Shown here: positions 1 through 60,090 of the stretch, piece by piece | Layout of the letters: the number at the start of each line of letters is the position of its first letter | Position numbering within the stretch: position 1 is the first letter of the stretch | From: Candidatus Omnitrophota bacterium | Lineage (GTDB): Bacteria; Omnitrophota; Gorgyraeia; Gygaellales; Profunditerraquicolaceae | DNA: 64,000 bases | Direction of reading: 5' to 3' | Assembly: GCA_030650425.1 (NCBI GenBank) | Contig: JAUSED010000009.1 | Coordinates: 142,846-206,845, forward strand | Notes under the pieces: model-generated | The model's input: only the letters and a program-made list of their open reading frames with translations | The model's database searches: none | Told to the model about the DNA's origin: nothing | Position numbers and translations under genes: made by a program

Positions 1-3000
1 GGCCGATAGGAGGAGACTTTAACGGAGACGCAAAGACCGACGTCGGAATTTATAACAATACCACCGGAGAATTAAAAATCATTCTCTCCAATGGAGGCGA
101 TGCTAAAACCAGCCAAGGTTCATTTTCCGCTGGAAGTACCTGGTTTAATTTTTCCGGAGCGTCTTATTCCTGGCAGCCGTTTACCGGTAACTTTAATGGC
201 GACAAATACACTGACTTTGGCCTCTATAATGTCGATACCGGCGAAGTAAAAGCCGCCTTAGGCATCCCGCCACAAGGCGCGGGACAGGCAGGCAGCGGTT
301 TTGGGCCACTGACTACTTGGGCAAGCAGCGCAGGGGGCTATACCGCGCTCTCAGGAGATTTTAACGCGGATGGTTTAACTGATCTTTGTTTATTTAAGAA
401 ATCCAGCGGCGAATTCAAGGTAGCTTTTTCTAACTCCAAGTCTTTTGTTGATGAATCAACTTGGATTACCGGCTATGCTACGGATAAAGACGCGCTGGTT
501 TCTGACTTTAACAATGACGGCTTAACCGATATTGGTTATTGGGATAAGACAACAGGCAGGTGGTATTACGCCATCTCCACCGGTGATAAATTCGTCGATA
601 AAGGGGTTTGGCTAGATAGTTTTGGCTCAAGTAATGATGAATCCGCTACCACCGGTGATTTTAACGGTAACGGTATCACCGACGCTGCTACCTTTGATAA
701 AGACCAGCTCGGGATTGACCGTTGGACCACCCGCCTCTCTACCAATCAACCCGCGGATCTCCTCACTGAAATCGATAACGGCATCGGCGGCAAGACTAAA
801 ATTACCTACACTTATGCCGCAAGCGAAGACAATCTCGGCTTGCCATTCCCGGTTTATGTGGCTTCATCTATCAGTCTAATTAATACTTTTCCAACTGAGC
901 GCGCGGCTACCTACACCCAAAACTTTAGCTTCTCCGGCGGTTATTTCGATACCACTGAGCGCGAATTCCGCGGCTTTGCCAAAGTAAGGGTAACAGATCC
1001 AATTACCCATAACTACAGCGAAACCTACTTTTATCAGGGTAAGTCCGATGAAACCGATCCTTTCAAAAAGGATGGCGCGCTCAAAGGACAAATTGATAAG
1101 GTGATTGCTTATGATGGGAGTAACCGTAAAATCAGCGAAACAGTAAACACCTACGAAGTCAAAAAGGCCGGGCCTGAGGACAGGTTCTTAGGCTTTCCCA
1201 GCCTAAAAGAACAAAACACCACGGTCTACGAAGAAAACGGCAGCTCGCTTGCAACCAAAAACACCTTTAGCTATGACAATATCGGTAATCTCACCGGAGA
1301 AACAAGCTACGGCGATATTACCAAAACCGGAGATGAAAAATCAACCTCAAATACCTACGCCCAAGCCTATAGCTACAACACCACTGCTAGCTCCGGCTTT
1401 AACCGTCCGCTAGAATCCTCTCTCAAAGACAAAGATGGGAATATCGTCACCCAGAAAAACTTTGAGTATGACGCAAAAGGAAACCTCGCTAAAGATATTG
1501 TCTTGATCTCCAACCCGCTCACCAGTTCAGTCGTTACCACCCAAACCCAATACAGCTATGACGACTACGGCAACCTCACCTCAACCACCAATGCCTTAGG
1601 TAAGTCTGTTACCACCGAATACGAAACCGACCTTTACACCTATCCAGCCAAAGTCACTAACTCCCTAGCTCATTCCATAAGCTATATTTATGACCCGAAG
1701 TTTGGTGTGGTTAAGTCTGTCACCGATACTAATGGCGCTACCTCAAGCACAACCTATGATTCCTTTGCTAGGCCAGTACAAGTAAAGAATGCCTATGATC
1801 AAGTAGTGACAACCTATACCTACCCTGATTTTAACACTAAAACCACCACTAACGCCGTAGGCCTCTTTAAAACCGAGTATATTGACGGCTTAGGCAGAAA
1901 ATATAAAGCTATCTCCAGCGGTGAAGATGGCGCGTCTCAAAGGAATATCTCTAGCGAGGTTTTCTACAATGAAAGGGGATTAACCGCTAGCGAATCCCTG
2001 GCGCATTATGTTGATGAAGACGCCGGTAATATTTCCTATATCAGATATAGATATGACAAAAGAGGCAGGATAGCCGAGACTATCTCTGATTTCGCTACCC
2101 CAATGCAAGAGACAGGAGAACCTGGCGATTACAGCCAGCTTACTGGTAAAGATACCTTTAGCTCGATTTCTTACCTTACTCCTCTCTATGTGGAAACCAC
2201 TGACCCTCTAGGCCACCGCAAAGGCACGCTTAAGGATGTTTACGGTAATATCCTGGAAGTAAGAGAGTTTATCCATGCGGATAACGAAACCAAGCCTGAT
2301 GGCGCATTCCACACCTACTATGAATACGACACCCAGAATAACCTCACTAAAACCACGGATAACAAAGGTAACACTACCCAAATCTTCTATGACTCCATCG
2401 GCAGAAAGCTGAAGATGATTGACCCGGATATGGGTACCTGGAGCTATGAATATGATATACTAGGTAACCTAAAGAAGCAAACCGATGCCAAGGGCCAAAT
2501 CCTCACTTTTGAATACGACGATCTCAACCGCCTTGCAAAGAAATCGTCATTGCGAGGCAGCGAAGCTGCCGAAGCAATCTCTGAATATTTCTACGATGAC
2601 CCAGCTAAAGACAACTGCGTAGGAAGGCTATCTAAAATCACCGACCTCTCCGGCTCAACCGAATTCTTCTATGATAAGCTAGGCAGGGAAGTAAAAAGCA
2701 TTAAGTCATTGCGAGGCACCGAAGGTGCCGGAACAATCTCCTACACTGTCCAGCGCGAATACGATGTTTTAGACCGCCTGACTAAATTAACCTATCCCGA
2801 TGGCGAAGCAGTAAATTACACCTACGACACCAACTCCGGCTTACTTAAGTCATTGCGAGGCACCGCAGGTACCGAAGCAATCTCTTACGTCCAGAATATG
2901 TCCTACAACGCCAAAGGCCAATCCACCAATATCCTCTACGGCAACAATGTCCAGACTACTTACACCTATGGCCAAGACTTACGTCTTGCGAATATATCCA

Positions 3001-4787
3001 CTATCCACAGTCCATCATCTACCATCCTTCAAAACTTAGATTATACCTTCGACCACAACGGTAACCTGACTGATCTAAACGATGCCATAAGGAATAAAAA
3101 GCGTAACTATACTTACGATGACTTAGACCGTTTAATCAGCGCAAAAAATACTCCTGCGCCCGGAGGCCTATATGGAGATTTCTACTATAGCTATAACTCG
3201 ATAGGTAATATGTTTGAAAAAACTGAACCAAACAACTCTACCATAACTATGGGCTATGGCAAGGACGCAGGACCGCATGCTTTAACTAGCGTAGGAAATT
3301 GTAACTACCAATACGATGCCAATGGTAATATGACTGTCGGTAAAAACAAAATTCTTAGCTACGACACTGAGAACCGATTACTGAGCGTAAATGAACAAGG
3401 TATAATCACTTCATTCCTTTATGATGGAGATGGAGGGAGGGTAAGAAAGACCACCGGCTCAAATTCTACCACCTACATCGGCTCGCTCTTTGAAAAGGAT
3501 TCCAGCGGTAAAATCACTAAACATATCTTCGCCGGCTCAAACCGGGTAGCCTCTGCTATAGCGAACCCTGATGGAACTAAACAAACTCTATATTACCACA
3601 GCGATCACTTAGGTTCATCTAACGTGATTACCGATCAAACCGGCTCACTTGTGCAATATTGCGAATACACTCCTTATGGTTCGCTTGCCCGTAACGAAGG
3701 CACTGATGTAGCAACCCATAAATTCACCGGTAAGGAACTGGATAGGACTGGACTCTACTTCTACGGGGCGAGGTATTACGACCCGGAGATCGGCAGATTT
3801 ATTACTGCCGATACGATTGTCCAAGCTCCTTACAACCCCCAAACCTTAAACCGCTACACTTATTGTGGTAATAATCCGATTAATTATGTGGACCCAACGG
3901 GGCATTGGTTCTGGGCGTTAGTTTGGGTAATAATAGAGGCGGTAAAGGCGTATGCCATAGCACATCCTATCATCGCTGGAGCCATTGCAGGTGCAATTTT
4001 TAATACTGCTATGAATGCCTCTAATATCAATAGCTTCGGCAGTTTTATGACTTATGCAGCTATAGGCGCAGTAGCGGGCGCGGCTGGTGGAGGTGTTGGA
4101 GCATATATAGGAGCTAGTAGCGCGTTCTGGGGAACGGCCGCAGGCGCTTTTACAGGGGGATTTATTGCTGGGGCTGGAAACGCAGGTTATGGGGGAGCAA
4201 GCTTTGGCCAAGCTATGCTCTCTGGATTAATGGCTGGCGGTATTGCCGCAGCTACAGCAGTGGTAGTTTATGGAGCAATAAAGGTAGGCGAAAAGATAAT
4301 TTCATCAACGCAAAAGGTAGCCACTGCCCAAGCAAAAGCCGTGGGAGAAAAAACACCAGTAGGACAAAAAGATAGCGGTTTAACTACAGAAGTAGGAAAA
4401 GGCACATCTGGTGATCCCATAATTGATGACCCTGGAGTAAAAAAGACGATGGACAGAGCATGGCAAGAATCACTAGATGGTCAAGCAAACGTACATGAAC
4501 AAGGCGGATGGATAGAAGAACATGGTGGATATCGTTGGCCGCAAGGAGAAAGTGGCAGCATTTCGGTTCCAAACACTCGACCATCTGGAACTATAGCGGA
4601 ATTTCACACACACCCCTATTCATCTAGCGAAAGGTTTTTTCCTGGACCGAGTCCGAGTGATTTTTCAGGATTCAATGATCCATCATCAAGCGTATATGGC
4701 ATAAGACATTTTATTGTAGACAGGCAGGGAGTTATCGAATATCATGCTGATGGAAATTGGAATTATATAAAATCTTCTTCAGATTAA
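1..4787 (+). CDS. Rhs/YD-repeat polymorphic toxin, 5'-partial (continues upstream of window): FG-GAP-like repeats, YD repeats, RHS core, ~294-aa C-terminal toxin tip
   Basis: Frame 3 is open from nt 3 with no stop before the ORF-track TTG at 840. Five DFNGDGxTD FG-GAP-like repeats in 1..700; many YDxxGN YD repeats; RHS core RYYDPEIGRF...YVDPTGH at ~3760..3903; variable C-terminal tip follows. Confidence 0.9.
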   Translation, partial: PIGGDFNGDAKTDVGIYNNTTGELKIILSNGGDAKTSQGSFSAGSTWFNFSGASYSWQPFTGNFNGDKYTDFGLYNVDTGEVKAALGIPPQGAGQAGSGFGPLTTWASSAGGYTALSGDFNADGLTDLCLFKKSSGEFKVAFSNSKSFVDESTWITGYATDKDALVSDFNNDGLTDIGYWDKTTGRWYYAISTGDKFVDKGVWLDSFGSSNDESATTGDFNGNGITDAATFDKDQLGIDRWTTRLSTNQPADLLTEIDNGIGGKTKITYTYAASEDNLGLPFPVYVASSISLINTFPTERAATYTQNFSFSGGYFDTTEREFRGFAKVRVTDPITHNYSETYFYQGKSDETDPFKKDGALKGQIDKVIAYDGSNRKISETVNTYEVKKAGPEDRFLGFPSLKEQNTTVYEENGSSLATKNTFSYDNIGNLTGETSYGDITKTGDEKSTSNTYAQAYSYNTTASSGFNRPLESSLKDKDGNIVTQKNFEYDAKGNLAKDIVLISNPLTSSVVTTQTQYSYDDYGNLTSTTNALGKSVTTEYETDLYTYPAKVTNSLAHSISYIYDPKFGVVKSVTDTNGATSSTTYDSFARPVQVKNAYDQVVTTYTYPDFNTKTTTNAVGLFKTEYIDGLGRKYKAISSGEDGASQRNISSEVFYNERGLTASESLAHYVDEDAGNISYIRYRYDKRGRIAETISDFATPMQETGEPGDYSQLTGKDTFSSISYLTPLYVETTDPLGHRKGTLKDVYGNILEVREFIHADNETKPDGAFHTYYEYDTQNNLTKTTDNKGNTTQIFYDSIGRKLKMIDPDMGTWSYEYDILGNLKKQTDAKGQILTFEYDDLNRLAKKSSLRGSEAAEAISEYFYDDPAKDNCVGRLSKITDLSGSTEFFYDKLGREVKSIKSLRGTEGAGTISYTVQREYDVLDRLTKLTYPDGEAVNYTYDTNSGLLKSLRGTAGTEAISYVQNMSYNAKGQSTNILYGNNVQTTYTYGQDLRLANISTIHSPSSTILQNLDYTFDHNGNLTDLNDAIRNKKRNYTYDDLDRLISAKNTPAPGGLYGDFYYSYNSIGNMFEKTEPNNSTITMGYGKDAGPHALTSVGNCNYQYDANGNMTVGKNKILSYDTENRLLSVNEQGIITSFLYDGDGGRVRKTTGSNSTTYIGSLFEKDSSGKITKHIFAGSNRVASAIANPDGTKQTLYYHSDHLGSSNVITDQTGSLVQYCEYTPYGSLARNEGTDVATHKFTGKELDRTGLYFYGARYYDPEIGRFITADTIVQAPYNPQTLNRYTYCGNNPINYVDPTGHWFWALVWVIIEAVKAYAIAHPIIAGAIAGAIFNTAMNASNINSFGSFMTYAAIGAVAGAAGGGVGAYIGASSAFWGTAAGAFTGGFIAGAGNAGYGGASFGQAMLSGLMAGGIAAATAVVVYGAIKVGEKIISSTQKVATAQAKAVGEKTPVGQKDSGLTTEVGKGTSGDPIIDDPGVKKTMDRAWQESLDGQANVHEQGGWIEEHGGYRWPQGESGSISVPNTRPSGTIAEFHTHPYSSSERFFPGPSPSDFSGFNDPSSSVYGIRHFIVDRQGVIEYHADGNWNYIKSSSD
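2546..2579. repeat. GTCATTGCGAGG...GAAGCAATC palindromic element, copy 1, in frame inside rhs (encodes SLRGSEAAEAIS)
   Basis: gtcattgcgaggcagcgaagctgccgaagcaatc; internal hairpin ggcagc-gaa-gctgcc. Confidence 0.8.
2705..2738. repeat. Same element, copy 2, in frame inside rhs (encodes SLRGTEGAGTIS)
   Basis: gtcattgcgaggcaccgaaggtgccggaacaatc; hairpin ggcacc-gaa-ggtgcc, compensatory relative to copy 1. Confidence 0.8.
2849..2882. repeat. Same element, copy 3, in frame inside rhs (encodes SLRGTAGTEAIS)
   Basis: gtcattgcgaggcaccgcaggtaccgaagcaatc. Confidence 0.8.
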
Positions 4788-4791
4788 TAAA

Positions 4792-5202
4792 ATGCGTAAA
4801 TTATCAAATAACAGTTTTTTAACTATTAAAGTCTCTATAAAGATCTTACTAATTGTATCCTTATTGACTGGGATGTCTTATGTTAACAAGAAGGAAAATA
4901 TGAAAATTAAATATGAAGACGCGATAAAGATCTCAAATAATTTTCTTCAAAGTAAAGGTTTTGATACGCAAAAAACCGAGACTATTCTTGATCCAAAGAA
5001 TGAAAAGTGGGTTAAGTATTACTCAAACAACAAACTCCTTATTGAATACTATAGTGAACTATTGAAAACGTTAGAAGACAAGAATTACTGGGCAATCCAT
5101 TATGTGCCTAAAAAAATGACTTCTATAATTAAGGGAGGTGGAGCCTGGGTTTTTATTGATGTAACTACTGGAAAAGTGATTTCGTATTTTCTTGAAAAAT
5201 AG
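4792..5202 (+). CDS. Small AT-rich protein with N-terminal hydrophobic segment; candidate cognate immunity protein for the Rhs tip
   Basis: Starts 5 nt after rhs stop, same strand, strong AT shift; N-terminal TM/signal-like segment LLIVSLLTGMSYV; position typical of Rhs immunity genes. Confidence 0.5.
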   Translation: MRKLSNNSFLTIKVSIKILLIVSLLTGMSYVNKKENMKIKYEDAIKISNNFLQSKGFDTQKTETILDPKNEKWVKYYSNNKLLIEYYSELLKTLEDKNYWAIHYVPKKMTSIIKGGGAWVFIDVTTGKVISYFLEK

Positions 5203-5304: not shown

Positions 5305-6567
5305 TTAATTTTCAAGGCGTTGGATAAGCCTTTGGGATTTGATTCTTAAGGTTTCAGCGATAGCTTTGTTCTTTGATAAGAGGCAGGTGGAATCAATGAT
5401 GATAAGAGCCGCAATGGCCTCTTTGCATTGGCCGAGGGAAGCGGGTGAGTCTTGGAGTATCTTGGAGAGACAAGCGTTCTGTTTGATCCAGTAAGTCAAT
5501 GACCAGACTAAGAAGGAAATAATCCAATGACGTTGGATCTGTTCTTGGTCGTGGACTTGATACTGGTCAAAACAGAAGTTGTCTTTAAGTTCGCGGAATG
5601 ATTCTTCAATACCCCAGCGCAGAAGATAAGTATCAATAGCGGTTTTAACGGACATCGCGGGGTTATTGGTAATCAGGACATGCGTATCTTTTTCATCGGT
5701 ATCAGACCATTTGTCAAATATAAAGAAGATTTGTAAAGGGGTAGAACAATCCTTGAGTTTGGATTTGATGGCATAAGTAAATATGTGCTTAACTTTGCCG
5801 TTTTGTTGAAGGATTTCAACATGTTTGAGGCGGTGGGCATAGAATTGTTTGATTAGCGGAATAATTTCCTCAGCGCGCATATGCGCTTGTTGTTTAGTTT
5901 TAGGATGAGCAAAAAAGATAGAACGGTTAATTTTTGTTTCAGCGACGAAAACTAAATTTTTTGAGGCGATGAACTCAATCATCTCAGAGGAAGTGTACCA
6001 AGCATCAAAGACGATACTAGAGAAGGGGATATTTTTAGCGACAGCTTCGCTAATCAGCTCTTTAGCCAGATCAGGTTTACTTTTAAAATTCTCCGGCGGC
6101 TGGCCTTGTACAGGGATATAAGATTTAAAGTTGATCGGGAAGTGTTTAGTGTTGGAGACAAAACAGGAAGCGACGGCGACATTGCAATTTTCCTTTTTGC
6201 CCAAAGAGCCGCAGTATTGGAATTGAGCGCCTTCGGTTTTCTTGGCGTGAGGTTTAGGGCAGCCGGTATCATCAAGGGCGAAGACACCATTGGGCGTGGC
6301 GCGCGTTGTTGATTGATTCTGGATGATTTTAAGGCGCGTGTCATTGAGCTTATTGATATCCCAGGAAGAGTCAGAGAAGAAGTATTGGAGTTTTTGATAA
6401 TGAGTATTTGTTCTTCGGGCGATGGCGGATAATGATAAACGTTTGTAGTCGAAGAACATGCCATAGATAAGTCCGCGTAAGGCGGACATTTGGGTATTTG
6501 AAAAAACAGGCTGGAAGCGCGCAAGAAACTGATCGATAAAACGTAAACGAGCGTTGAAATGAGCCAT
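5305..6567 (-). CDS. DDE transposase, IS4/IS701-like
   Basis: 420 aa with transposase-like architecture; DDTG motif in the catalytic region; antisense shadow ORFs inside it. Confidence 0.7.
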   Translation of the reverse strand: MAHFNARLRFIDQFLARFQPVFSNTQMSALRGLIYGMFFDYKRLSLSAIARRTNTHYQKLQYFFSDSSWDINKLNDTRLKIIQNQSTTRATPNGVFALDDTGCPKPHAKKTEGAQFQYCGSLGKKENCNVAVASCFVSNTKHFPINFKSYIPVQGQPPENFKSKPDLAKELISEAVAKNIPFSSIVFDAWYTSSEMIEFIASKNLVFVAETKINRSIFFAHPKTKQQAHMRAEEIIPLIKQFYAHRLKHVEILQQNGKVKHIFTYAIKSKLKDCSTPLQIFFIFDKWSDTDEKDTHVLITNNPAMSVKTAIDTYLLRWGIEESFRELKDNFCFDQYQVHDQEQIQRHWIISFLVWSLTYWIKQNACLSKILQDSPASLGQCKEAIAALIIIDSTCLLSKNKAIAETLRIKSQRLIQRLEN

Positions 6568-6684: not shown

Positions 6685-8287
6685 TAGTTACCGCTGAAAA
6701 ACCCCGTTTATGATTACGCGGGTTAGAAGACAAGATTCTACACTCTGTTTTTATTGTTTGTTTTATTTATTTTTTGTTTTTTCATCCCGTTCATTGAAAA
6801 TCCTTGCCTTTAGCCGTATGCCGTAGCAGTTTTAAGGTTCATTGCCATAAGCCCTAAACGTATCCACATCTCTTCACCATCGGGAATATGGTAACGAATA
6901 CGGTCAAGGCCGTATTTGCGCTTAGCCAGGCTTATCTTTGCTTCAATAGAGCACCTTAAGCGGCGTAGGCGCTCCCTAAAAGGCTTGTGCTCTAGATAAG
7001 AGGATTTACCTTTATTCTCAATGGCAATTTTAGAGATATTTTTCTCTTCGGCCAAGAGGTAATTCTTTTTTGACCAGAATCCTCTGTCGGCAGATAACTG
7101 GCTGGGGTATGATCCAAAGCGTTCTTTGTAAGCGTCAATAGCGGTTCCTAATAAGTTTGAGTCTGAGATATTGGCGAAATTTAAGCTTTCTAAAAAGAGG
7201 CACTTGTTTTTAAGGTTAAGCAGGATTTTTGGCCCAAACTCAACCTCAACCGGGTATTTGCCCCTGACCATAGGCCGGAGATGCGGCTTATGCACAGAGA
7301 CGATGCGTTCCTTTACCGGCAGGCCATGATAAACATCTTTTTGCTGGGTAAGGATTGTACTGGCGGTATCTAGAAAACGTTGCGCCTCTTTGATAAATTC
7401 ATCCTTGGCTTTATCGGCAGTATTCTGATTGGGAGCGGAGATGTTATCCGTTGCTTCCTTAAGCTGGTTTATGTTCCTGCGGGAGAATTGCAGGAGTTTT
7501 CTCTGCGCTCTCCCGCGTGATTGCTTGGTATGATGCCTGATCTTTTGATAGGTGATAAATACTCTTCGAGCTGTGCGTTTGTAGGTGCGGTATGCCTTGG
7601 CGCCGAATTGTTTGGCAGTCTCCAGGTATTTTACCGCTTTCCGGCGCACCTTATCCAGCAGTGACACATCTGTAGGATAGGCGATATCAGCAGGCACAAC
7701 CGTAGTGTCGCAGACTAACCGCCTGCCTTTTAGGAGCCTTGTTCTTTGTAAACTTTTGAAGACTTCCTGTTCAATAAGCTTTACTCCTTCAACGCCGATC
7801 TGCTTCCTGAACTTGCTTAAGGTTGAAGGGTTGATAAAATTCTTAGCCTCTTTAAGAGAGACATCGCAGAGGTATTGAGCATAGATATCACGCTTGATAA
7901 GATCAACCAGTCCGGCATCTGAGTAACGGTATAAGTGCTTTAAGATTAACAGCCCGACCTTGGCACGGGATGGCTTGGCTGGACGGCCGTTATCAGCGCA
8001 ATAGAAACGGGAGAGCTTCTCTGATACCGACACCCAGTCTATTGCCTTGGATATCTTGATAAGCTCGTGGTTTTCATCAACTTCTGGAACGACGAACCAG
8101 TCGTGGGTGAAGCTAAACTGATGCTCTTCTGATTCTTTGGTATACATTTTTTAGGCCTCCTCATTTGTGGTTAAATGCACGATTCTCGACGATATTATAC
8201 CAAATTCCGTGCACTTTGAGGAGAATTATTACAACTATTTTTAACCACTCTCGTCGATAAACATCGAGGGTTTTTCAGCGGTAACTA
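6685..8287 (-). mobile_element. IS1182/IS5-family insertion sequence with 20-bp terminal inverted repeats
   Basis: tagttaccgctgaaaaaccc at 6685..6704 and its exact reverse complement at 8268..8287 flank the transposase ORF. Confidence 0.85.
6810..8147 (-). CDS. IS1182/IS5-family transposase (InsH-type N-terminal domain plus DDE)
   Basis: 445 aa; N-terminus FTHDWFVVPEVDENHELIKISKAIDW...YSDAGLVDLIK matches the InsH/DUF772 N-terminal domain. Confidence 0.8.
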   Translation of the reverse strand: MYTKESEEHQFSFTHDWFVVPEVDENHELIKISKAIDWVSVSEKLSRFYCADNGRPAKPSRAKVGLLILKHLYRYSDAGLVDLIKRDIYAQYLCDVSLKEAKNFINPSTLSKFRKQIGVEGVKLIEQEVFKSLQRTRLLKGRRLVCDTTVVPADIAYPTDVSLLDKVRRKAVKYLETAKQFGAKAYRTYKRTARRVFITYQKIRHHTKQSRGRAQRKLLQFSRRNINQLKEATDNISAPNQNTADKAKDEFIKEAQRFLDTASTILTQQKDVYHGLPVKERIVSVHKPHLRPMVRGKYPVEVEFGPKILLNLKNKCLFLESLNFANISDSNLLGTAIDAYKERFGSYPSQLSADRGFWSKKNYLLAEEKNISKIAIENKGKSSYLEHKPFRERLRRLRCSIEAKISLAKRKYGLDRIRYHIPDGEEMWIRLGLMAMNLKTATAYG

Positions 8288-16922: not shown

Positions 16923-17249
16923 ATGCAGACACGCGGCAGGCCAAAAAAATACAGGATAGTGCATCTTGACCCTAAAATAAGCCAGTTTAGCCCAAGGGGC
17001 AGGCCCGGCAGGCCTAATGAAGTGGACCTGAGCATGGATGAATTCGAGTCATTACGGCTGGCTGATCATATGGGATTACCGCAGAAAGAGGCAGCTAAAT
17101 CCATGCGTATATCTCAACAAACCTTTAGCCGGATATTAAAGAGAGCGCATAGAAGCATTGCTAACGCATTAGTTAATGGCAATACCATAAGAATACAGGG
17201 CGGCCATTACGTAATCAGTTCCCGAGAAGAGAATGAGAAAACTATCTGA
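16923..17249 (+). CDS. DUF134/UPF0251-like HTH DNA-binding protein
   Basis: PRGRPGRP...LSMDEFESLRLADHMGLPQKEAAKSMRISQQTFSRILKRAHRSIANAL (sigma-70 region 4-like HTH). Confidence 0.65.
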   Translation: MQTRGRPKKYRIVHLDPKISQFSPRGRPGRPNEVDLSMDEFESLRLADHMGLPQKEAAKSMRISQQTFSRILKRAHRSIANALVNGNTIRIQGGHYVISSREENEKTI

Positions 17250-17895
17250 CTTAAGCAAAGAAAAATTAACCAGCCTATACCTTAACGAAAAGAAATCCAT
17301 GGGAGATATAGCTAAAATCTATGGCGTTTCCCGGACAGCGATATATAAAAGACTGAAAATATATGCTATAAAACAACGTTCTAAGTCAGAAGCAAGGATT
17401 GAAGCACAGAAACAAGATAAACTTCCCCAATTAATTGAGAAGGTTAAAAAGGTTACTGGCTCAGAACATAAAATAACGCCATCTAGACACCAGAAAGGAT
17501 TATATTACTTTCATTTCGCCAGAGAAAAACTTGCGGCGGATTTAGCGAAACTCGGTGTTTTACCCAGAAAGAGCCTAACAGTCAAATTCCCGCAGGTTCC
17601 AGAAAAACACCTGGCTGATTTCATAAGAGGAATCTTTGACGGTGATGGCAGTGTGTTCTTTGATAAGCGCCGGCCAAAATTCCCCTTACGATCAAAGTTT
17701 GTTAGTGGTTCGGAGGCCTTTATAGAAGGATTACAAAAGGCCATTGAAGATTATTTAGGTATGCCTAAAAGGACAATTTATAAACAAAAAACCAAGAATG
17801 GATGGAGTCATATGTTTATATATGGACATAAAGACAGCACAAAATTGTTTGAAATTTTATATAAAAATACCCAAAATGGGCTATTTAGAACGTAA
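17233..17895 (+). CDS. Free-standing LAGLIDADG-family homing-endonuclease-like protein with N-terminal HTH
   Basis: LAGLIDADG motif FIRGIFDGDGSV; N-terminal HTH MGDIAKIYGVSRTAIYKRLK; overlaps upstream gene by 17 nt. Confidence 0.7.
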   Translation: MRKLSDLSKEKLTSLYLNEKKSMGDIAKIYGVSRTAIYKRLKIYAIKQRSKSEARIEAQKQDKLPQLIEKVKKVTGSEHKITPSRHQKGLYYFHFAREKLAADLAKLGVLPRKSLTVKFPQVPEKHLADFIRGIFDGDGSVFFDKRRPKFPLRSKFVSGSEAFIEGLQKAIEDYLGMPKRTIYKQKTKNGWSHMFIYGHKDSTKLFEILYKNTQNGLFRT

Positions 17896-17945
17896 ATACA
17901 ACCGTTTTTTAGAGGGTTTAAAAGGAATTTAAGGAAGCATATACT

Positions 17946-18131
17946 ATGGATGGACGGCTTAAAGAATGGGTAGATTGGCATAAAGGACAGATTAGCAGTT
18001 TCCACACCAAGGACTTAGCGGCAAATTTAGGAGTTTCAACCCGGACAATTCAACGCTGGATAAAAGAACAGACAAAGCCCAAGGAAGATCAATTACAGAG
18101 AATCACGCAGTACGTAAAGGAAAACAGTTAA
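17946..18131 (+). CDS. Small HTH protein
   Basis: LAANLGVSTRTIQRWIKEQ helix-turn-helix. Confidence 0.45.
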   Translation: MDGRLKEWVDWHKGQISSFHTKDLAANLGVSTRTIQRWIKEQTKPKEDQLQRITQYVKENS

Positions 18132-18315
18132 AGGGGAAGCACAAAGGCAATTAACCGATAAAAACAGTCGGTTTTCTTATATGCTTGTATGTCGCACAAG
18201 TGCCCATAATATATCTTATGTTAACTTCAACATATTGGCTAATCTGCTCTAAAGCCTTGGTTGGTAATGGGTTGAATGAGGCCTGTGTTTTCCTGTGGAT
18301 AAGCACTTTTTCATT

Positions 18316-18331
18316 TACTTAAACTTACCGC
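18316..18331. repeat. Right 16-bp inverted repeat (partner of 16900..16915)
   Basis: ttacttaaacttaccg is the reverse complement of cggtaagtttaagtaa. Confidence 0.8.
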
Positions 18332-18406
18332 CTTCTTTTAGGCTTAACATTTCTGGGAAGATTTATAGATGAAACTACCGGGATTTTTTGGCTTTAATCG
18401 CCTATT

Positions 18407-19510
18407 TTATCTACGGGTTAAAATAACTTGGCTGGGATAAATTGTACCATCTCCAAAACGAGCGTTAATCCTATCTACTGCCTTCACCAAAGCCTCTCTT
18501 CGTTTTTCCTCAACTAATAAAGGAAGGTAGCCTTGCCGGCTTAAACCACTGGCAGTTACTCCCAGAGCCCGGATTTTATGGCCTTTTTTGGACATCCTAG
18601 CCATTATTTTAAGGGATCTCAGGTAGATCTCATAACTATCATTAGTGGCCATAGAGAAGGTTTTTTGGGCCTCAACATTGCCTATCTGTGGGCCATTTAG
18701 CCAAAGGTGAACCGTCTTAGCGGTCAGGCTTTGCTGGCGCAGACGCTCACCAACCATCTCAGATAACAGCCTAATCCAAGCAGTAATAAACTGGGGGTTT
18801 GCAAAAGCCCTTGGTAAGGTATATGAATGGCTTATAGACTTAGGGTACTTTTGAGTTTCCTCGGTTTCCTCAAACTTACCGGGATTTGCATCAAAGAATT
18901 CCGGTAAGTTTAGGTATACGTCCCAACAGGTTTTTAAGCCTTGAGCTCTTAAGCTTTGGCCGGTTTTGCCAGCCATCCCGCAGAGTTTCTCAAGCGGAGC
19001 GCGGCTTAGAATCTCCTTAAAATTACTCTCATCGATTAAAGTTATACCTTTTGGCTTATTAATTTTAGAGGCGAGCTTGGCTAAAAGCCAATTTTTAGCA
19101 ATACCAACCGAAGCAGTGATATTAAAGTTTGCATATATCTGCGCTTGAATTTGGACAGCTAATTGAAGCGGTTCAGAATAATCCTGAAGATCCATCTGGA
19201 ATTCATCCACTGAAGCATAATTCAGGCTGAAGCCGTAACCCTTAAGCAGCTCAAAGATCTGCTCTGAGGTCCAAATATACTTACCTTGGCTAGCCGCCAC
19301 AAATTCCAAATTTGAGCAAATACTAAAAGCTTCCCTTGAAGGCATACCGGAATGAATCCCTAAACGCTTGGCTTCATAACTGGCGGCGCAAACCACGGTA
19401 TGCATTTTATTAGCGCGCGAACCGATAATTAAGGGTTTATCTTTAAGGCGCGGGTTAATCGCCTGTTCAATTGAGGCAAAAAACGCATCCATATCAATAT
19501 GCAGGATCAT
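18407..19510 (-). CDS. dinB: DNA polymerase IV (Y-family)
   Basis: MILHIDMDAFFASIEQ N-terminus and overall Y-family architecture. Confidence 0.85.
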   Translation of the reverse strand: MILHIDMDAFFASIEQAINPRLKDKPLIIGSRANKMHTVVCAASYEAKRLGIHSGMPSREAFSICSNLEFVAASQGKYIWTSEQIFELLKGYGFSLNYASVDEFQMDLQDYSEPLQLAVQIQAQIYANFNITASVGIAKNWLLAKLASKINKPKGITLIDESNFKEILSRAPLEKLCGMAGKTGQSLRAQGLKTCWDVYLNLPEFFDANPGKFEETEETQKYPKSISHSYTLPRAFANPQFITAWIRLLSEMVGERLRQQSLTAKTVHLWLNGPQIGNVEAQKTFSMATNDSYEIYLRSLKIMARMSKKGHKIRALGVTASGLSRQGYLPLLVEEKRREALVKAVDRINARFGDGTIYPSQVILTRR

Positions 19511-19531
19511 ACTTAAACGAACCCGAGATTT

Positions 19532-19840
19532 TTATTGGATTATTTTATCAATCTGCCAGCGGAAGGTGGAATTATTAAATGATATTTGATAGAGCTGGCC
19601 GGCGCAAGCTACCGAAAAGTAATTGATTAAGGCCTGGCCAAAGCGTTCCTGCCAGTTATAGGTTATGTTATCGATCTTGTATTCCTTATTATTCCAAAGG
19701 AAAGTTTTAGGATAAATCCTGGCGTGCTTAAAATATGCCAGGACTTCGATACGTTCGGATAGATCATCCGGATTAAAACCGCATTTTTCCGGCTCAAACC
19801 TGTCCCAGCGAGCTTTAGGATTAAAACTATTTTGGTTCAT
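19532..19840 (-). CDS. Hypothetical protein
   Basis: 102-aa ORF downstream of the KilA-N gene, same strand. Confidence 0.3.
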   Translation of the reverse strand: MNQNSFNPKARWDRFEPEKCGFNPDDLSERIEVLAYFKHARIYPKTFLWNNKEYKIDNITYNWQERFGQALINYFSVACAGQLYQISFNNSTFRWQIDKIIQ

Positions 19841-19858
19841 TTTTACAAAGGCGTCAAC

Positions 19859-20674
19859 TCATCTCCTTAGCTTTCTTACCCCTCGATCATCGGTAAGTAA
19901 TTTCATCTGTTGAATGGCAATTCTATTCAGCTTTAATAATCTTTCTTCCTGATTAAAGTTTTCGCTAATAAATAAGGCGTTTAAATTCTCAAGATTTGAA
20001 AGACACACTAATTGAGATATATCAGCATAATCTCTAATGTTGCCCTTCTTCTCGGAATTTTTATCGCGCCAATCTCCGGCTGTCATACCAAACAAAGCCA
20101 TATTCAAAACATCAGCTTCTGAAGCATAAATATTATTTATTTGCGCTTTTGTAAGCTCATCAGGAATCAAATTTTCTTTTATGGCGTCAGTATGTATACG
20201 ATAGTTAATTTTTGTAAGATTACGCCGAATATCCCAACCAAGCTGTTTTAGTTCCTGATCTTTTAAACGCTGGAATTCCTTAATGAGATAAAGCTTAAAC
20301 TGAGGCGATATCCAAGATGCGAACTCGAAAGCAATATCCTTATGGGCGTAGGTGCCGCCGTTTCGGCCAGATTTAGATATTAATCCAATCGCGCTCGTTG
20401 TCTCTATCCATTTTTGCGGAGATAATACAAAGTAATTTACCCCAGCTTCATTCCTAAACTGGTCGAATTCGACCAGTTTAAAACCGGAATTGTTTAATTT
20501 CTCCCATAGGCCCAAAAATTCAATAGTACTTCTGCTTCGTAACCAATTTTTAACAATGTCAGCAGGCGCATCGCTATTTCTGTATTTGGCGATATCAGTC
20601 AGAGATATGTAACTCTGCTGTTCTCTGGATATTATGGAAATATCTCTACCTTGAACGTATAATATTTCTGCCAT
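19859..20674 (-). CDS. KilA-N domain protein
   Basis: N-terminus ILYVQGRDISIISREQQSYISLTDIAKYRNSDAPADIVKNWLRSRSTIEFLGLWEKLNN matches KilA-N. Confidence 0.7.
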   Translation of the reverse strand: MAEILYVQGRDISIISREQQSYISLTDIAKYRNSDAPADIVKNWLRSRSTIEFLGLWEKLNNSGFKLVEFDQFRNEAGVNYFVLSPQKWIETTSAIGLISKSGRNGGTYAHKDIAFEFASWISPQFKLYLIKEFQRLKDQELKQLGWDIRRNLTKINYRIHTDAIKENLIPDELTKAQINNIYASEADVLNMALFGMTAGDWRDKNSEKKGNIRDYADISQLVCLSNLENLNALFISENFNQEERLLKLNRIAIQQMKLLTDDRGVRKLRR

Positions 20675-20804
20675 TTTATCTTTAGCTCCTCTTTTAGCTT
20701 TGGCTATCTTTCCTCTTTTTGTACTATTTACCCTTATGTCTACCTTTTCAAGGGAAAATCATGATTACTGCTTAAAAACTGTTCAAATGTTTGGACCCTG
20801 GCAG

Positions 20805-21410
20805 TTAATATTTCCTAATCACCGTCATCAACTTACCAATGATCTTGAATTCTTCAAAAATTGGCGGGTAATTCGGGTTAGCCGCTTCCAAATGATATTT
20901 ATTACTTTTACGCGCCAGCCTTTTTAAGGTAACTTCGTTATTCTCCAAAAGCGCGGCCACAATTTCATTATTCTCGGCATAGGGCTGTTTCTTGATGATC
21001 GCCACATCGCCATCCAGGATCCCGGCATCAATCATACTGTCGCCTTTAACCCTTAAAGCAAAAACATCATCAAAGCCTAAACGGCCCAGAAACAAATTAT
21101 CCACATCGACATAACCCTGGATTTCTTCATAAGCCAGATTCGGCTTACCAGCCATGATCGTACCAATTATAGGAATCTTATTAAAACCAGCGCGTTCAGT
21201 TAACTCAATCGCCCGAGATTTATTATTCATCCGCCTGACCAATCCTTTCTGCTCTAAAGCCTTTAGATAGTCCCTTACTGTACCGGTAGATTTAAACCCC
21301 AGCTCCCCTGCTATTTCCCTAATCGTAGGAGGCAGCCTCTCCCCTATCCGTTTACGGATAAAATTAAGCACTTTTTCCTGCTTTGGAGTCAAAAACGGTT
21401 TATCTCGCAT
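20805..21410 (-). CDS. lexA: LexA repressor
   Basis: N-terminal wHTH (LTPKQEKVLNFIRKR...VRDYLKALEQKGLV) plus S24 peptidase region GDSMIDAGILDGDVAIIKKQ; starts 3 nt after recQ stop. Confidence 0.85.
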   Translation of the reverse strand: MRDKPFLTPKQEKVLNFIRKRIGERLPPTIREIAGELGFKSTGTVRDYLKALEQKGLVRRMNNKSRAIELTERAGFNKIPIIGTIMAGKPNLAYEEIQGYVDVDNLFLGRLGFDDVFALRVKGDSMIDAGILDGDVAIIKKQPYAENNEIVAALLENNEVTLKRLARKSNKYHLEAANPNYPPIFEEFKIIGKLMTVIRKY

Positions 21411-21412
21411 AG

Positions 21413-23260: not shown

Positions 23261-23277
23261 CTTCTTATTAACTTTGT

Positions 23278-23724
23278 TTATAATGTATTATCGAAATTAT
23301 GCTCGGTCGGTGACAATTTGTCACCGACTCGCTGCCCTCTTTTTTCAATCTTTCTTTCAGCTTGTTCCAGTATTTTCTCGCGGTTTGAAAATCCTTCTGC
23401 CTGGCGAAAACGCGTGGCAATATTAGATTTGACCCGATATCCAACGGAAATAATCATATCCAGATTATAATATAATGTCTTATAAGATTTCCGATCTAAA
23501 GCAGTTGTCAAGAATTCCTTGACAACTGAATCCTTGTCAAGCTCCCCTTCTTCAAAAATATTCTTAATATGAAGACTTACGTTTTGCTTAGTAGTCTGAA
23601 ACAGTTCCGCCATCAACTGCTGAGTCAGCCAGACCGTTTCATTTTGGAAACGAACATCAATTTTAATTTTTCCGTCTTCAGCCTGATAGATTATCAACTC
23701 AGATTTATTTTCTTTATTTTTCAT
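23278..23724 (-). CDS. RhuM-family (virulence RhuM-like) protein
   Basis: LIIYQAEDGKIKIDVRFQNETVWLTQQLMAELF...YNLDMIISVGYRVKSNIATRFRQ matches RhuM N-terminal signature. Confidence 0.7.
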   Translation of the reverse strand: MKNKENKSELIIYQAEDGKIKIDVRFQNETVWLTQQLMAELFQTTKQNVSLHIKNIFEEGELDKDSVVKEFLTTALDRKSYKTLYYNLDMIISVGYRVKSNIATRFRQAEGFSNREKILEQAERKIEKRGQRVGDKLSPTEHNFDNTL

Positions 23725-23855
23725 TGACTCGCTCCTTTTAAACTTTTACCTTTAGCCCACCTTTACTTTTTAACTTTTATACATTACCACACATTTGTGT
23801 GGTTTGTCAAGAAAAAAGAGAGATACGAAGTATCGTATCCCCGAATTGGCGCTTT

Positions 23856-24107
23856 TTAAGCTTTTCTTTTTAAATTATCAGGCGAATTAACCGCGGTAAT
23901 ATTTGTTGATTGTATGACATACAGAGGATTGCCTTCGTTATCATACTTACTATCCACCCGAAGCACTTTTGTAGCAACGAGTTTGATTTTGACAACCGTG
24001 CCATCATCTAATAAGTACTGATTCCAGTATTCATTTGTCTGATTAATATCAACTGGCGTAGCTTCCATTTCTTCACCGCCAAAATTAATCTTTACTTTAT
24101 TCGACAT
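23856..24107 (-). CDS. Hypothetical small protein
   Basis: 83-aa ORF with no recognisable family. Confidence 0.3.
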   Translation of the reverse strand: MSNKVKINFGGEEMEATPVDINQTNEYWNQYLLDDGTVVKIKLVATKVLRVDSKYDNEGNPLYVIQSTNITAVNSPDNLKRKA

Positions 24108-33793: not shown

Positions 33794-34293
33794 GCATAAT
33801 CTATGACGCTTTAAAAAAAGTGCAGAAGAATAATGGCAAAGATGAAACTCCGCAGGAAGAGACCGCCCAACCTGTCAAAACTAAGATAAAAATTAACCCT
33901 ATGCTTATTTATATACTAGTAGTCTGCCTCGGGTTAGCATTAGGCAATCTTGCCTATAATTTTTTTGGCCATTCCAATAATATGGTTCCATCTAACAAAG
34001 AGGTTGCTGGTCAGTCAAAAGCAAACCCTCCCCTTCAAACTCTTAGCCAAACAGGAACAGCTCTACCCCTAAAGCCGGATACTTCCGCTAATCCCACCCC
34101 CCCGGCTAACCCAGAACCAACTCTGGCCTTAAATGGCGTATTCTTTGAACAAGGAGAAGGCTACGCTTTGATTAATAACAAGATTGTCAGGGTGGGAGAC
34201 GAAATCAGCAACGCAAAGGTAAAAGAAATCGCTATAACTGGCGTAGAACTGGAATTTGAGGGTAAAACGATTAAACTTGCCAGCCCTTCTTAG
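33790..34293 (+). CDS. GspB-like protein (partner of ExeA)
   Basis: MSIIYDALKKVQ N-terminus, single TM, Pro/Thr-rich linker; 4-nt overlap with exeA-like gene. Confidence 0.55.
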   Translation: MSIIYDALKKVQKNNGKDETPQEETAQPVKTKIKINPMLIYILVVCLGLALGNLAYNFFGHSNNMVPSNKEVAGQSKANPPLQTLSQTGTALPLKPDTSANPTPPANPEPTLALNGVFFEQGEGYALINNKIVRVGDEISNAKVKEIAITGVELEFEGKTIKLASPS

Positions 34294-35407
34294 ATTGCTT
34301 CGCCACTCGCTTTGCTCGTGGCTCGCAATGACAAAGTATCGCCGCCTCGATAATTTCTAGAGGAACATTCTCTACGATTTTAGTCTTTCCTAATCCGGTA
34401 AGTAAAACCAATCTGTTTTTAGCTCCCCTAAATTTTTTATCCCGGTGAAAAGACTTGATTATGCCTTTAAGGGAGACGCCCTTAATCACCGCTGGAAGCC
34501 CGAATTCTTTTATAAGATTTTCTACTCTTGCTTTTAAACGGCTATTGATCAGGCCCATCTTTTGGCTTATCTCTAAAGCAATCAGCATTCCTAAAGCCAC
34601 TGCCTCCCCATGCGCATACCGGCTAAACCCCGACGCGGATTCAATAGCGTGCCCTAGCGTATGGCCAAAGTTCAAGACCGTCCTTATTCCTCTTTCTTCC
34701 CTTTCATCAGCCTGCACAATATCCGCCTTTATTTTACTGGAAACGCTGACGATATGTTCCAAGGCGGAGTTCTTAAGGCTAAAAATATTTTTTCGCTCAT
34801 TTTCTAAATACGCGAAAAGCCGCGGATCTTTGATTACGCCGTATTTAATTACCTCGGCTAAGCCGGCGCGCAGTTGCCTGAGGCTAAGGGTCTCTAGCAG
34901 CCCAACATCGCTAAGCACCAAACGCGGCTGGTAAAATGCCCCGATTAAGTTCTTCCCCTCTTCCAAGTCAACTGCTGTTTTCCCTCCGATAGCAGAATCT
35001 ACCTGCGCCAGTAAAGTCGTGGGTACTTGCAGATAAGGGATCCCGCGCTTATAGATCGAGGCAACTAACCCGCTTAAATCTCCAACCACGCCTCCGCCCA
35101 AGGCAATAATGAAAGTTCGTTTCTTCAGGTCAAATTTAGCTAAATCTTTAATCACGGCAGATAACACGGGAATGGATTTACTTTTTTCAGTATCGGGGAT
35201 AGTCTTAATCTTAAAATTAAAACCGGTTTTTTCCAATTCCCTGACTAAGGCAGGGAAACATTTATGCTTGACTAAAGGATTAGTAATGATATAAGCGCTC
35301 TTACCCAGATTGAGTTTTTTGATATATTTACCCAACAGGCGGATTGAATTTTTACCTACGACTATATCGTAAGAACGCAAACCCAACTTTAGTCTGATAA
35401 TGCGCAT
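34271..35407 (-). CDS. aroB: 3-dehydroquinate synthase
   Basis: GGGVVGDLSGLVAS...VPTTLLAQVDSAIGGKTAVD; C-terminal ~20 aa are repeat-encoded. Confidence 0.85.
   Translation of the reverse strand: MRIIRLKLGLRSYDIVVGKNSIRLLGKYIKKLNLGKSAYIITNPLVKHKCFPALVRELEKTGFNFKIKTIPDTEKSKSIPVLSAVIKDLAKFDLKKRTFIIALGGGVVGDLSGLVASIYKRGIPYLQVPTTLLAQVDSAIGGKTAVDLEEGKNLIGAFYQPRLVLSDVGLLETLSLRQLRAGLAEVIKYGVIKDPRLFAYLENERKNIFSLKNSALEHIVSVSSKIKADIVQADEREERGIRTVLNFGHTLGHAIESASGFSRYAHGEAVALGMLIALEISQKMGLINSRLKARVENLIKEFGLPAVIKGVSLKGIIKSFHRDKKFRGAKNRLVLLTGLGKTKIVENVPLEIIEAAILCHCEPRAKRVAKQSKKGWQV
34293..34332. repeat. GTCATTGCGAG...GAAGCAATC element (reverse orientation) forming the C-terminal tail of aroB
   Basis: gattgcttcgccactcgctttgctcgtggctcgcaatgac; read on the minus strand it gives ...HCEPRAKRVAKQS at the aroB C-terminus. 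Confidence 0.75.
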
Positions 35408-59998: not shown

Positions 59999-60090
59999 CG
60001 TCATTCTGAGGACCCTGAGTGTAACGAAGGGGACGAAGGATCTCAAGAGATTCTTCGTCGTCCGCCTGCGGCGGACTCCTCAGAATGACG
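59999..60090. repeat. GTCATTCTGAGGA...TCCTCAGAATGAC composite palindromic element (~92 nt)
   Basis: 13-bp perfect outer inverted repeat; inner hairpins gacgaagga.../...ttcgtc and gtccgcc-tgc-ggcggac. Confidence 0.8.

Follow-up and report, generated by a model that had tools for sequence, protein, structure and literature searches.

A 64,000-nucleotide (nt) stretch of a Candidatus Omnitrophota genome (assembly GCA_030650425.1, contig JAUSED010000009.1, positions 142,846 to 206,845; "the window" below means this whole stretch) opens inside an Rhs/YD-repeat gene. In this gene lie three in-frame copies of a 34-nt palindromic element, which also recurs at a single structural register in orthologous Rhs genes and, outside them, across many phyla. 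We place the element among the short hairpin-forming dispersed repeats of the repetitive extragenic palindrome (REP) class, as a member of the CGTC-tagged superfamily with stem and loop sizes outside those given for its families. In our judgement these are probably selfish or neutral REP copies that have been retained in permissive beta-hairpin turns of the Rhs shell, and we infer that the peptides they encode have no function of their own.

Three copies within one Rhs gene

The copies follow a common plan, GTCATTGCGAG-(variable hairpin)-GAAGCAATC, at 34 nt each, and were scored with a covariance model (R1) that was built from 34 family members and searched over the whole 64 kb window:

Copy A, 2546..2579, plus strand: GTCATTGCGAGGCAGCGAAGCTGCCGAAGCAATC, with the tag CGTC from 2545 and the peptide SLRGSEAAEAIS in the Rhs frame; 58.2 bits
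Copy B, 2705..2738, plus strand: GTCATTGCGAGGCACCGAAGGTGCCGGAACAATC, with the tag variant AGTC and the peptide SLRGTEGAGTIS; 53.1 bits
Copy C, 2849..2882, plus strand: GTCATTGCGAGGCACCGCAGGTACCGAAGCAATC, with the tag variant AGTC and the peptide SLRGTAGTEAIS; 56.7 bits

An earlier note on this DNA had reported three in-frame 34-nt copies about 150 nt apart, and both direct reading and a pattern search bear this out. Start-to-start spacing is 159 nt from A to B and 144 nt from B to C, all three copies share one frame of the Rhs open reading frame (ORF), open from the window start to 4787, and a search with the two arms gives 4 matches in the window against 0.06 expected, a number that 0 of 100 shuffles reach. 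Folded as single-stranded DNA, the copies form a 5-bp outer stem, a GAG/GAA internal loop, a 6-bp inner stem and a 3-nt loop, with modest folding energies (z-scores -0.9 to -2.5). This structure is intact in copy A (outer stem ATTGC/GCAAT, terminal loop GAA); copy B has two substitutions in its 3' arm (GGAACAATC), and the inner stem of copy C has one C.A mismatch, equivalent to G.T on the opposite strand. The compensatory change that the note had seen between the inner hairpins of the first and second copies is real, GGCAGC/GCTGCC in A against GGCACC/GGTGCC in B, with two paired positions differing. Copies B and C are 89% identical over 44 nt and have in common the left flank TTAAG, the tag AGTC and the inner stem GGCACC/GGTRCC, while likeness among the flanks of all three ends beyond about 5 nt.

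The gene that holds them is the following:

3..4787, plus strand: Rhs/YD-repeat polymorphic-toxin ORF, predicted from sequence by Pfam and fold match; intact, and extending past the left end of the window

Its parts are FG-GAP-like repeats, TcdB_toxin_midN, RHS repeats, an RHS core motif and a C-terminal region without assignment. In Pfam the RHS_repeat (7e-35), TcdB_toxin_midN (1e-18) and FG-GAP-like matches lie above the curated cut-offs; the core motif (1.8e-4, 21.7 bits) lies under its cut-off of 27.9. Past the core motif (..DPTGHW..), at about 3900-4787, lie an extended hydrophobic stretch rich in Gly and Ala and a C-terminal domain that matches nothing in Pfam and may be an undescribed, putative toxin domain. 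A small ORF without a Pfam hit follows at 4792-5202 and is possibly an immunity gene.

An AlphaFold2 (AF2) model of the residues encoded by 2139-3143 has a mean predicted local distance difference test score (pLDDT) of 86.5 and resembles TcC/YenC/Rhs shells, with template modelling (TM) scores of 0.72-0.74 and E 1e-19; TcB/TcC were also matched. The three 12-residue peptides form strand-turn-strand units in the model (E132-138/E145-152, E184-195/E198-208 and E236-243/E246-256), with local pLDDT of 84, 66 and 80 against 90-95 around them. As modelled, each peptide would take the place of a native turn and lengthen the beta-hairpin by a few residues, with the ORF and the shell fold left intact.

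Filled, differently filled and empty turns in Rhs orthologues

Scanning metagenome contigs with the protein as guide gave 50 loci, 33 of which were aligned with the window Rhs (52-68% identity) into a 34-sequence alignment. Nine of the 33 orthologues carry the element in the Rhs ORF, always on the sense strand. With the window this makes 24 copies in 10 Rhs sequences, all in open frames and all at seven sites of one YD register. In the list below, L numbers denote the metagenome and census loci used for comparison, and loop lengths, measured between conserved anchors in the window and the 33 aligned orthologues, are given as the commonest (basal) and the filled length:

Site A, 2547: window, L125, L132, L151, L153; loop basal 12 residues, filled 17-19
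Site B, 2706: window, L125, L132, L130, L139; loop basal 14 residues, filled 20, or 32-33 with two tandem copies
Site C, 2850: window, L125, L127; loop basal 8 residues, filled 13
Site D, about 3003: L152
Site E, about 3453: L125
Site F, about 3558: L125, L132, L142, L151; loop basal 10 residues, filled 14 or 17
Site G, about 3696: L125, L152; loop basal 14 residues, filled 21-22

The frame read is SLR..EAIS at six of the seven sites and VIA..KQS at site G. Every site is preceded by the motif Y(D/G)xxxR(L/V) and three to five further residues and so lies in the turn after the second strand of the YD hairpin. All seven fall within the C-terminal ~385 residues of the shell, whereas the ~570 residues upstream, covered by most loci, have none. 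What the earlier note had described as recurrence at one register of the repeat is confirmed and widened to these seven sites in orthologues. The orthologue L125 has six copies, including A, B and C at the same 159/144-nt spacing as in the window, and its 1573-codon ORF is still open. The note's view that the peptides come from a repeat family and lie outside the ordinary YD repeat agrees with their absence from 11 database homologues (33-64% identity) and from 23 of the 33 aligned metagenomic orthologues. It had also held that Rhs homologues from genomes without the repeat family, with the same peptide as part of the normal YD repeat, would tell against this; some orthologues do have the peptides at the same sites, but there they are encoded by the same element, which implies that the window copies are partly inherited or exchanged and are not three private insertions.

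Codon alignments place unrelated sequence in homologues at the positions of copies A-C. Since the filled loops gain 4-8 residues and not 12, about 5-7 native codons have been replaced per copy. The proposal that the 12-residue peptides are insertions is thus upheld in that homologues lack them and fails in that the insertion is not a clean one. The replacement may reflect deletion after insertion, integration of a replacement type or an older repeat having been overwritten; even between the sisters L152 and L153 (81% protein identity), DNA divergence near the sites is too great to give exact insertion junctions. At site B, tandem copies are present in L130 (2560-2630, SLQGGAASSSVSLRGASTASDEAIS) and L139 (2540-2620, SLRGVALSPVSLRGGAAGADEAIS), the upstream copy being truncated or decayed, which suggests repeated arrival at one place.

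Occupation of these turns differs among the orthologues. Carriers are scattered over a star-like tree and form no clade, either globally or in the A-C region, and the sisters L152 and L153 have no filled site in common. The nearest relative of the window in the A-C region, L126 (84%), has no CGTC-type copy; at sites A, B, C, D and F it has a second palindrome, GGACTGTCCCCGCAGGGGACTGTCCC (read as GLSPQGTVP), in this or a diverged form. This second palindrome, which contains one T.T mismatch, is also present in L127, L128, L130, L139 and L144, and all 11 of its copies have one orientation, sense. Nine of the 11 are identical over 27 nt, although they come from Rhs orthologues of different metagenomes, and in the DNA examined the palindrome was found only within Rhs ORFs (examples are L126:2802, 3264 and 3888; L127:2358 and 3327; L139:2385 and 3141). 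Tandem heptamers occur at the same turns as well, CCACAGT repeated three to four times and read as STVHSQQS, and GGACGAx (ACGAnGG-type) read as TKDDGRGT(I), at L130:2400, 2901 and 3363, L139:3351, L137:2376 and L156:80 and 950. As the same turns hold the element, the other palindrome or heptamers in different orthologues, they behave as recurrent sinks for short repetitive DNA.

Several identities show copies to be related across sites and genes. Copy A and the copy at site F of L125 have one and the same 32-nt core, from which the corresponding copy of L132 departs by two arm substitutions only; the site C inner stem of L125 and L127 is that of window copies B and C. Between orthologues, third-codon identity is about 0.8-1.0 in the element against about 0.5 at synonymous flank positions, which is compatible with constraint on the DNA and equally with copies that arose later than the genes, whether by new insertion or by conversion from a genomic pool. 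Duplication of whole YD units carrying the element can be ruled out, element-free orthologues being collinear, as can a single clade of carriers, by both the global and the A-C-region trees. The copies are best described as partly inherited, partly exchanged between sites and genes and, in the case of B and C, partly decaying.

The wider family and the search for an enzyme

The covariance model finds five strong copies in the window, A-C and two on the minus strand, with the tags CGTC twice, TGTC once and AGTC twice. A weaker inverted doublet belongs to a sister subfamily:

34293..34332, minus strand: family member with a longer inner hairpin and the tag TGTC; 43.2 bits
63007..63040, minus strand: family member with the tag CGTC and the in-frame peptide RHCERPKGAKQSN; 57.0 bits
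59999..60042, plus strand: left half of the sister-subfamily doublet, CGTCATTCTGAGGA-hairpin-GACGAAGGATC; weak, 14.2 bits, E 0.36
60049..60090, minus strand: right half of the doublet, CGTCATTCTGAGGAGTCCGCCGCAGGCGGACGACGAAGAATC; weak, 20.7 bits, E 0.011

The 34293-34332 copy is in frame as the C-terminal tail (..CHCEPRAKRVAKQSKKGWQV*) and makes up the last 20 residues of 3-dehydroquinate synthase (AroB, ORF 34271-35407). The 63007-63040 copy lies in the linker between a zf-like Cys-rich domain and a CbiX domain (ORF 62610-63293, minus strand); CbiX homologues have the same two-domain layout with a variable linker and lack the peptide, and the linker gains about 6 residues. All five strong copies are therefore in frame within ORFs, in turns, a linker and a tail. 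The earlier note had spoken of antisense family members with HCE..AKQS tails: two minus-strand copies do exist, but they were called antisense because they were viewed against the plus strand of the window. Within the minus-strand gene that holds it, each is sense-oriented and in frame, and one of them is not a tail. The CbiX protein is itself a fusion with an N-terminal Cys-rich zf-like domain (PF04071), with a linker of highly variable length, and this fusion is kept by over 100 homologues; most of these are metagenomic proteins without a name, and those with a name come mainly from Omnitrophota.

The doublet at 59999-60090 is flanked by a cbiO-like ABC gene and by cbiQ, whose last codons the right half overlaps, and is the only intergenic member in the window. 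Its subfamily has the form CGTCATTCTGAGGA...GACGAAGAATC, with an outer stem two positions off ATTGC/GCAAT; both changes are complemented in the right half (ATTCT/AGAAT), and the left half has one mismatch. Rfam at the gathering threshold gives no family besides one tRNA over the whole window, and at E up to 10 over 2400-3000 only chance-level matches, with no family that fits the element.

To follow the family beyond the window we searched one genome per bacterial or archaeal species (596 Gb) with the pattern CATTGCGAG-N(8-30)-GAAGCAATC, which gave at least 120 loci. By our own arithmetic, 18 specified bases and 23 gap lengths could yield a few hundred matches in a search of that size by chance. 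We do not regard the matches as chance, because flank positions left free by the pattern are conserved: of the 156 copies listed from these loci, 153 have G at -2, 152 have T at -1, 141 have C or T at -3 and 149 have C or T at +1. Taken whole, the conserved unit reads YGTC-ATTGC-GAG-(variable)-GAA-GCAAT-Y. The YGTC tag is unpaired, the outer stem has 5 bp, the GAG/GAA internal loop is conserved, the inner stem is hypervariable but self-complementary, and the tail is short and begins with a pyrimidine. The inner segment is 8-30 nt long, with a stem of 2-10 bp and a loop that is usually a 3-nt GAA. An A at -3, as in copies B and C, is rare (9 of 156). The commonest continuation after the stem is CAG (44 of 156); read with the last stem base as ..AATCCAG, it would fit the CCA tail consensus of the CGTC-tagged REPs. 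Window copies read ..AATCTC or ..AATCTA. No conserved target sequence upstream of the tag was seen in the 156 listed copies.

Judged by record titles, and among the matches listed, the element occurs in at least 15 phyla, the titles naming Alpha-/Gammaproteobacteria, Chloroflexota, Patescibacteria, Cyanobacteria, Bacteroidota, Ignavibacteriota, Zixibacteria, Planctomycetota, Omnitrophota, Desulfobacterota, Campylobacterota, Armatimonadota, Latescibacterota, Spirochaetota, Myxococcota and others. Again among the listed matches, L002, L022, L033, L060 and L124 contain inverted pairs spaced by 20-70 nt, several of them between genes. The element also lies within very long open frames elsewhere, in putative genes (with 836+244 codons on its two sides in L023, 226+705 in L047 and 979+307 in L097; the dimer of L002 lies within 197+345), so that in-frame residence in other phyla shows it is not special to the source genome.

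Covariation was assessed on an alignment of 34 copies whose inner segment is 14 nt long; the window and the Rhs orthologues supplied 16 of these, other phyla the remaining 18. Pairing is 97% in the outer stem ATTGC/GCAAT, which hardly varies, and each of the 6 inner-stem pairs has changed at both of its positions. The alignment scores 0.286 for covariation, where shuffled copies give 0.097 (0 of 500 reach 0.286) and slid partners at most 0.099. The longest perfect inner stem separates real from shuffled copies weakly (3.0 against 2.2 bp), and the commonest subtype, GAGCGAAGCGAC, pairs irregularly. G.T pairs (11) and A.C pairs (10) are about equally frequent in the stem, which gives no sign of one strand acting as RNA. 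The earlier note had seen a sign of selection on nucleic-acid structure and not on the peptide. The hairpin is indeed maintained across the family by covariation; the conservation of the element above flanking synonymous sites may mean selection on DNA structure or, equally, recent insertion or conversion from the genomic pool.

We also looked for an enzyme that might mobilise the element. The note had pointed to an IS200/IS605-type TnpA-like gene, and none turned up in the window: Pfam finds no Y1_Tnp (IS200-like) domain among the 62 window ORFs scanned, and phmmer with four Y1 seeds finds no match in the window or in the 120 census loci listed. The two transposases downstream of Rhs are DDE-type. 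They are encoded by two different genes beyond the small ORF, at 5305-6567 (minus strand; DDE_5/DDE_Tnp_1) and 6810-8147 (minus strand; DUF772 and DDE_Tnp_1). Elsewhere in the window, a cluster of mobile or SOS flavour at 17233-24000 comprises a LAGLIDADG-like ORF (17233-17895), a DinB/ImuB-type polymerase (18407-19510), KilA-N (19859-20674), LexA (20805-21410), RecQ (21413-23260) and a RhuM-like fragment (23278-23724). One contig, L124, has a Y1 gene near a fragmented orthologous Rhs; it also contains the element five times, and four of these copies form inverted pairs between genes. This IS200-like gene (L124:13814-15030) lies 1-2 kb downstream of the Rhs, which has a TNT toxin domain, and has perfect 28-nt inverted repeats (AGGGGTCAGCCCTTGAAATGTGAAATGA) and a 200-nt tandem duplication of its left end; we rejected the RAYT-like gene as the element's mobiliser on account of these unrelated terminal repeats of its own. 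Likewise rejected as a REPtron were the genes between element dimers in L033, an O-antigen ligase and a glycosyltransferase, which are ordinary cell-envelope enzymes. The absence of an enzyme from the window and census loci agrees with the lack of a dedicated CGTC transposase in the published account (PMC3733652), as far as its text and supplementary tables go.

Origin of the copies and related repeat systems

Under the permissive-turn reading, copies would spread as DNA, by a trans-acting activity or else from copies elsewhere in the genome, through template switching or gene conversion. In a compact Omnitrophota genome, lasting intragenic copies would mark a tolerant landing place, with the frame kept and free of stops, and in Rhs the tolerant places are the turns following the Y(D/G)xxxR(L/V)xxx strand of the YD repeat. 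A number of observations weigh against this account. The Rhs gene has three of the five strong window copies in 340 nt, ~20-40 times the density elsewhere, for which tolerance alone is no obvious explanation. All 24 Rhs copies and all 11 copies of the second palindrome are sense, though two of the three antisense frames are stop-free. The gain of only 4-8 residues means that simple insertion is not the whole story, and the high third-codon identity of the element could mean a selected function at the sites. Mobility, finally, is something we infer, no mobilising enzyme having been found in the window or at the census loci.

In an alternative history, the window copies would go back to one or a few old insertions and not to three independent transpositions, and would have spread from turn to turn, and among Rhs paralogues or orthologues, by gene conversion or recombination. 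The rare AGTC tag, TTAAG flank and inner stem common to B and C, their 89% identity, the sharing of the site C stem with L125 and L127 and of the copy A core with the site F copies of L125 and (nearly) L132, and the repeated A-B-C spacing in L125 all speak for such a history, and we take it as a real possibility, if one we rate below even. The differing flanks beyond ~5 nt, the element-free orthologues with the same repeat architecture, which exclude whole-unit duplication, and carriers that are unclustered in global and local trees speak against it; in any case it is compatible with, and not opposed to, the permissive-turn reading. We think it unlikely that integration was instead targeted and of a replacement type, the turn DNA at one register being a preferred target of several short-repeat families by which the loops are actively diversified; exposed single-stranded or hairpin DNA or microhomology might be the cause. 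Seven sites in one register of the C-terminal ~385 residues with none in ~570 upstream, three or four repeat types at the same sites across orthologues, the steady gain of 4 to 8 and not 12 residues in Rhs and also in the CbiX linker, the doubled site B copies of L130 and L139 and the strictly sense orientation all speak for it. Yet no conserved target precedes the tag in the 156 listed copies, selection for turn-compatible, stop-free peptides gives the same register, frame and orientation, the loop alignments at 50-80% identity are too noisy for junctions, and the second palindrome, seen only in Rhs ORFs, may be a gene-internal cassette spread by conversion. The corresponding hot-spot picture, in which the CGTC-type REP, the GGACTGTCCCC palindrome and the heptamers overwrite one another in fixed orientation and replace codons, seems equally doubtful to us. 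If it were true, filled, empty and overwritten sites would be a record from which CGTC-type REP mobilisation could be deduced, and repeat-driven remodelling would be a source of surface variation in the Rhs shell.

Two further explanations would give the copies a function. A co-opted nucleic-acid role in Rhs, whether in transcript stability, in translational pausing during shell folding or as identical tracts that promote recombination, could draw on the conservation of the element above flanking synonymous sites, the sense-only orientation, the hairpin covariation and the proposal, in the published text on these repeats, that REPs are RNA elements (PMC3733652). We give it little credence: the balance of 11 G.T and 10 A.C pairs shows no sense-RNA strand asymmetry, copies B and C have changes that weaken the structure, most orthologues lack the element and sisters share no filled site, and the folding z-scores (-0.9 to -2.5) are modest. 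That SLRG..EAIS is a selected peptide of the Rhs family, with the DNA palindromy incidental, is very improbable and largely refuted by the census. The same frame at six of seven sites and the regular beta-hairpin extension in the model would suit it; however, the arms are identical to those of intergenic copies of many phyla among the matches listed, other genes and site G read the other sense frames, HCE..KQS and VIA..KQS, synonymous positions are conserved, and the middle of the peptide is hypervariable.

Intragenic palindromes are usually seen as curiosities of Rickettsia, and here the same class appears in a candidate phylum with compact genomes. The look-alike beta-hairpin turns of a repeat protein offer many equivalent landing places, and across orthologues some of these are empty while others hold this or another repeat. 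For CGTC-type REPs, no dedicated enzyme being known, the mode of movement has been in question since 2013; the Rhs set provides test material on junctions, orientation and replacement versus insertion. For annotation, peptides of the SLRG..EAIS, HCE..AKQS and VIA..KQS types in many phyla should be recognised as repeat-encoded.

The closest described relatives are the CGTC-tagged REPs of Di Nocera, De Gregorio and Rocco (2013, BMC Genomics 14:522; PMC3733652), compared here on the text and supplementary tables of that paper. These have a CGTC tag, often TGTC and also CCTC, an A-T stem start and a short unpaired 3' tail of consensus CCA; they are mostly intergenic, often inverted dimers, also with in-frame intragenic copies, and are reported from 5 phyla, with no dedicated transposase and no transposase gene flanked by the repeat (PMC3733652). 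We assign the element to this superfamily because it agrees in its tag, in how the stem begins, in arrangement and in lacking an enzyme, and may agree in its tail: it too has an unpaired tag directly 5' of the palindrome, an A-T/T-A stem start, dispersed copies, inverted dimers and in-frame copies, in several phyla. It differs in being bipartite, with a 5-bp outer stem, a 3x3 GAG/GAA loop and a variable inner stem, where the described families have a single 8-9-bp stem and a 4-5-nt loop (PMC3733652), and in its range of at least 15 phyla, among the matches listed, against the 5 reported. The authors themselves note that their search may have missed members with bulges or otherwise unusual ones (PMC3733652). 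Neither ATTGCGAG nor the peptides SLRG, HCE, KQS and LAMT appear in the supplementary tables of that paper, and the intragenic peptides tabulated there, VIPAKAGI and VIAGLDPAIH, imply other stem sequences (PMC3733652). Literature searches with the DNA words of the element and its encoded peptides returned only unrelated primer matches or nothing, and searches on Rhs together with REP terms returned nothing relevant.

Rickettsia palindromic elements (RPE) were reportedly described by Ogata et al. in 2000 as lying in frame in protein-coding genes and adding short peptides at tolerant places. Our element resembles them as a palindrome in frame within ORFs that adds a peptide without a counterpart in homologues, with a net gain of 4-8 residues. 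The likeness to Rickettsia that the earlier note had drawn is in fact closer than it claimed: in the text and tables on the CGTC superfamily, RPE-6 is classed as CGTC-1 and RPE-4 as CGTC-4, as is Neisseria dRS3 as CGTC-1, and the element has the same tag (PMC3733652). RPE-6 (VIPAKAGI / SFPRKRES) and the element have ends of the CGTCATT...AATCC type in common (PMC3733652). It is nonetheless not a member of an RPE family, as VIPAKAGI, SFPRKRES and DSRFRGND, the peptides given for RPE-6/CGTC-1, imply ATTCCCGC-type stems and not ATTGC-GAG. Unlike RPEs, it resides in a free-living candidate phylum and not an obligate intracellular alphaproteobacterium, it occupies one structural register of a repeat protein in many copies across orthologues, and it replaces loop codons and does not just add to them.

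With the GTAG REP/REPIN-RAYT systems the element shares a short hairpin, an unpaired tetranucleotide tag, inverted doublets and compensatory stem variation. GTAG REPs also have occasional in-frame intragenic copies, for example in subclass 2.4 tnpA-REP genes (PMC6006769). The tag here is YGTC and not GT[AG]G, and no element-flanked RAYT gene was found in the window or at the census loci. Neisseria dRS3, as it is described, has the same tag and plan, CGTC-ATT...AAT-CC, with another stem, and is mostly clustered and intergenic. Cyanobacterial small dispersed repeats, said by Elhai et al. in 2008 (cited in PMC3116915) to be hairpins of ~20-30 nt, seemingly mobile without a known enzyme and sometimes inside genes, are reportedly restricted to cyanobacteria, unlike the element; this comparison is one of descriptions. 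The superfamily, and in-frame residence in genes as part of its behaviour, are thus already known, and this is not a new kind of element. What appears to be undescribed in the literature is the clustering at one register of the Rhs shell, the recurrence there across orthologues with several repeat types, the fixed orientation and the replacement arithmetic, and in these respects our finding extends the known habit of such repeats of settling in tolerant protein loops.

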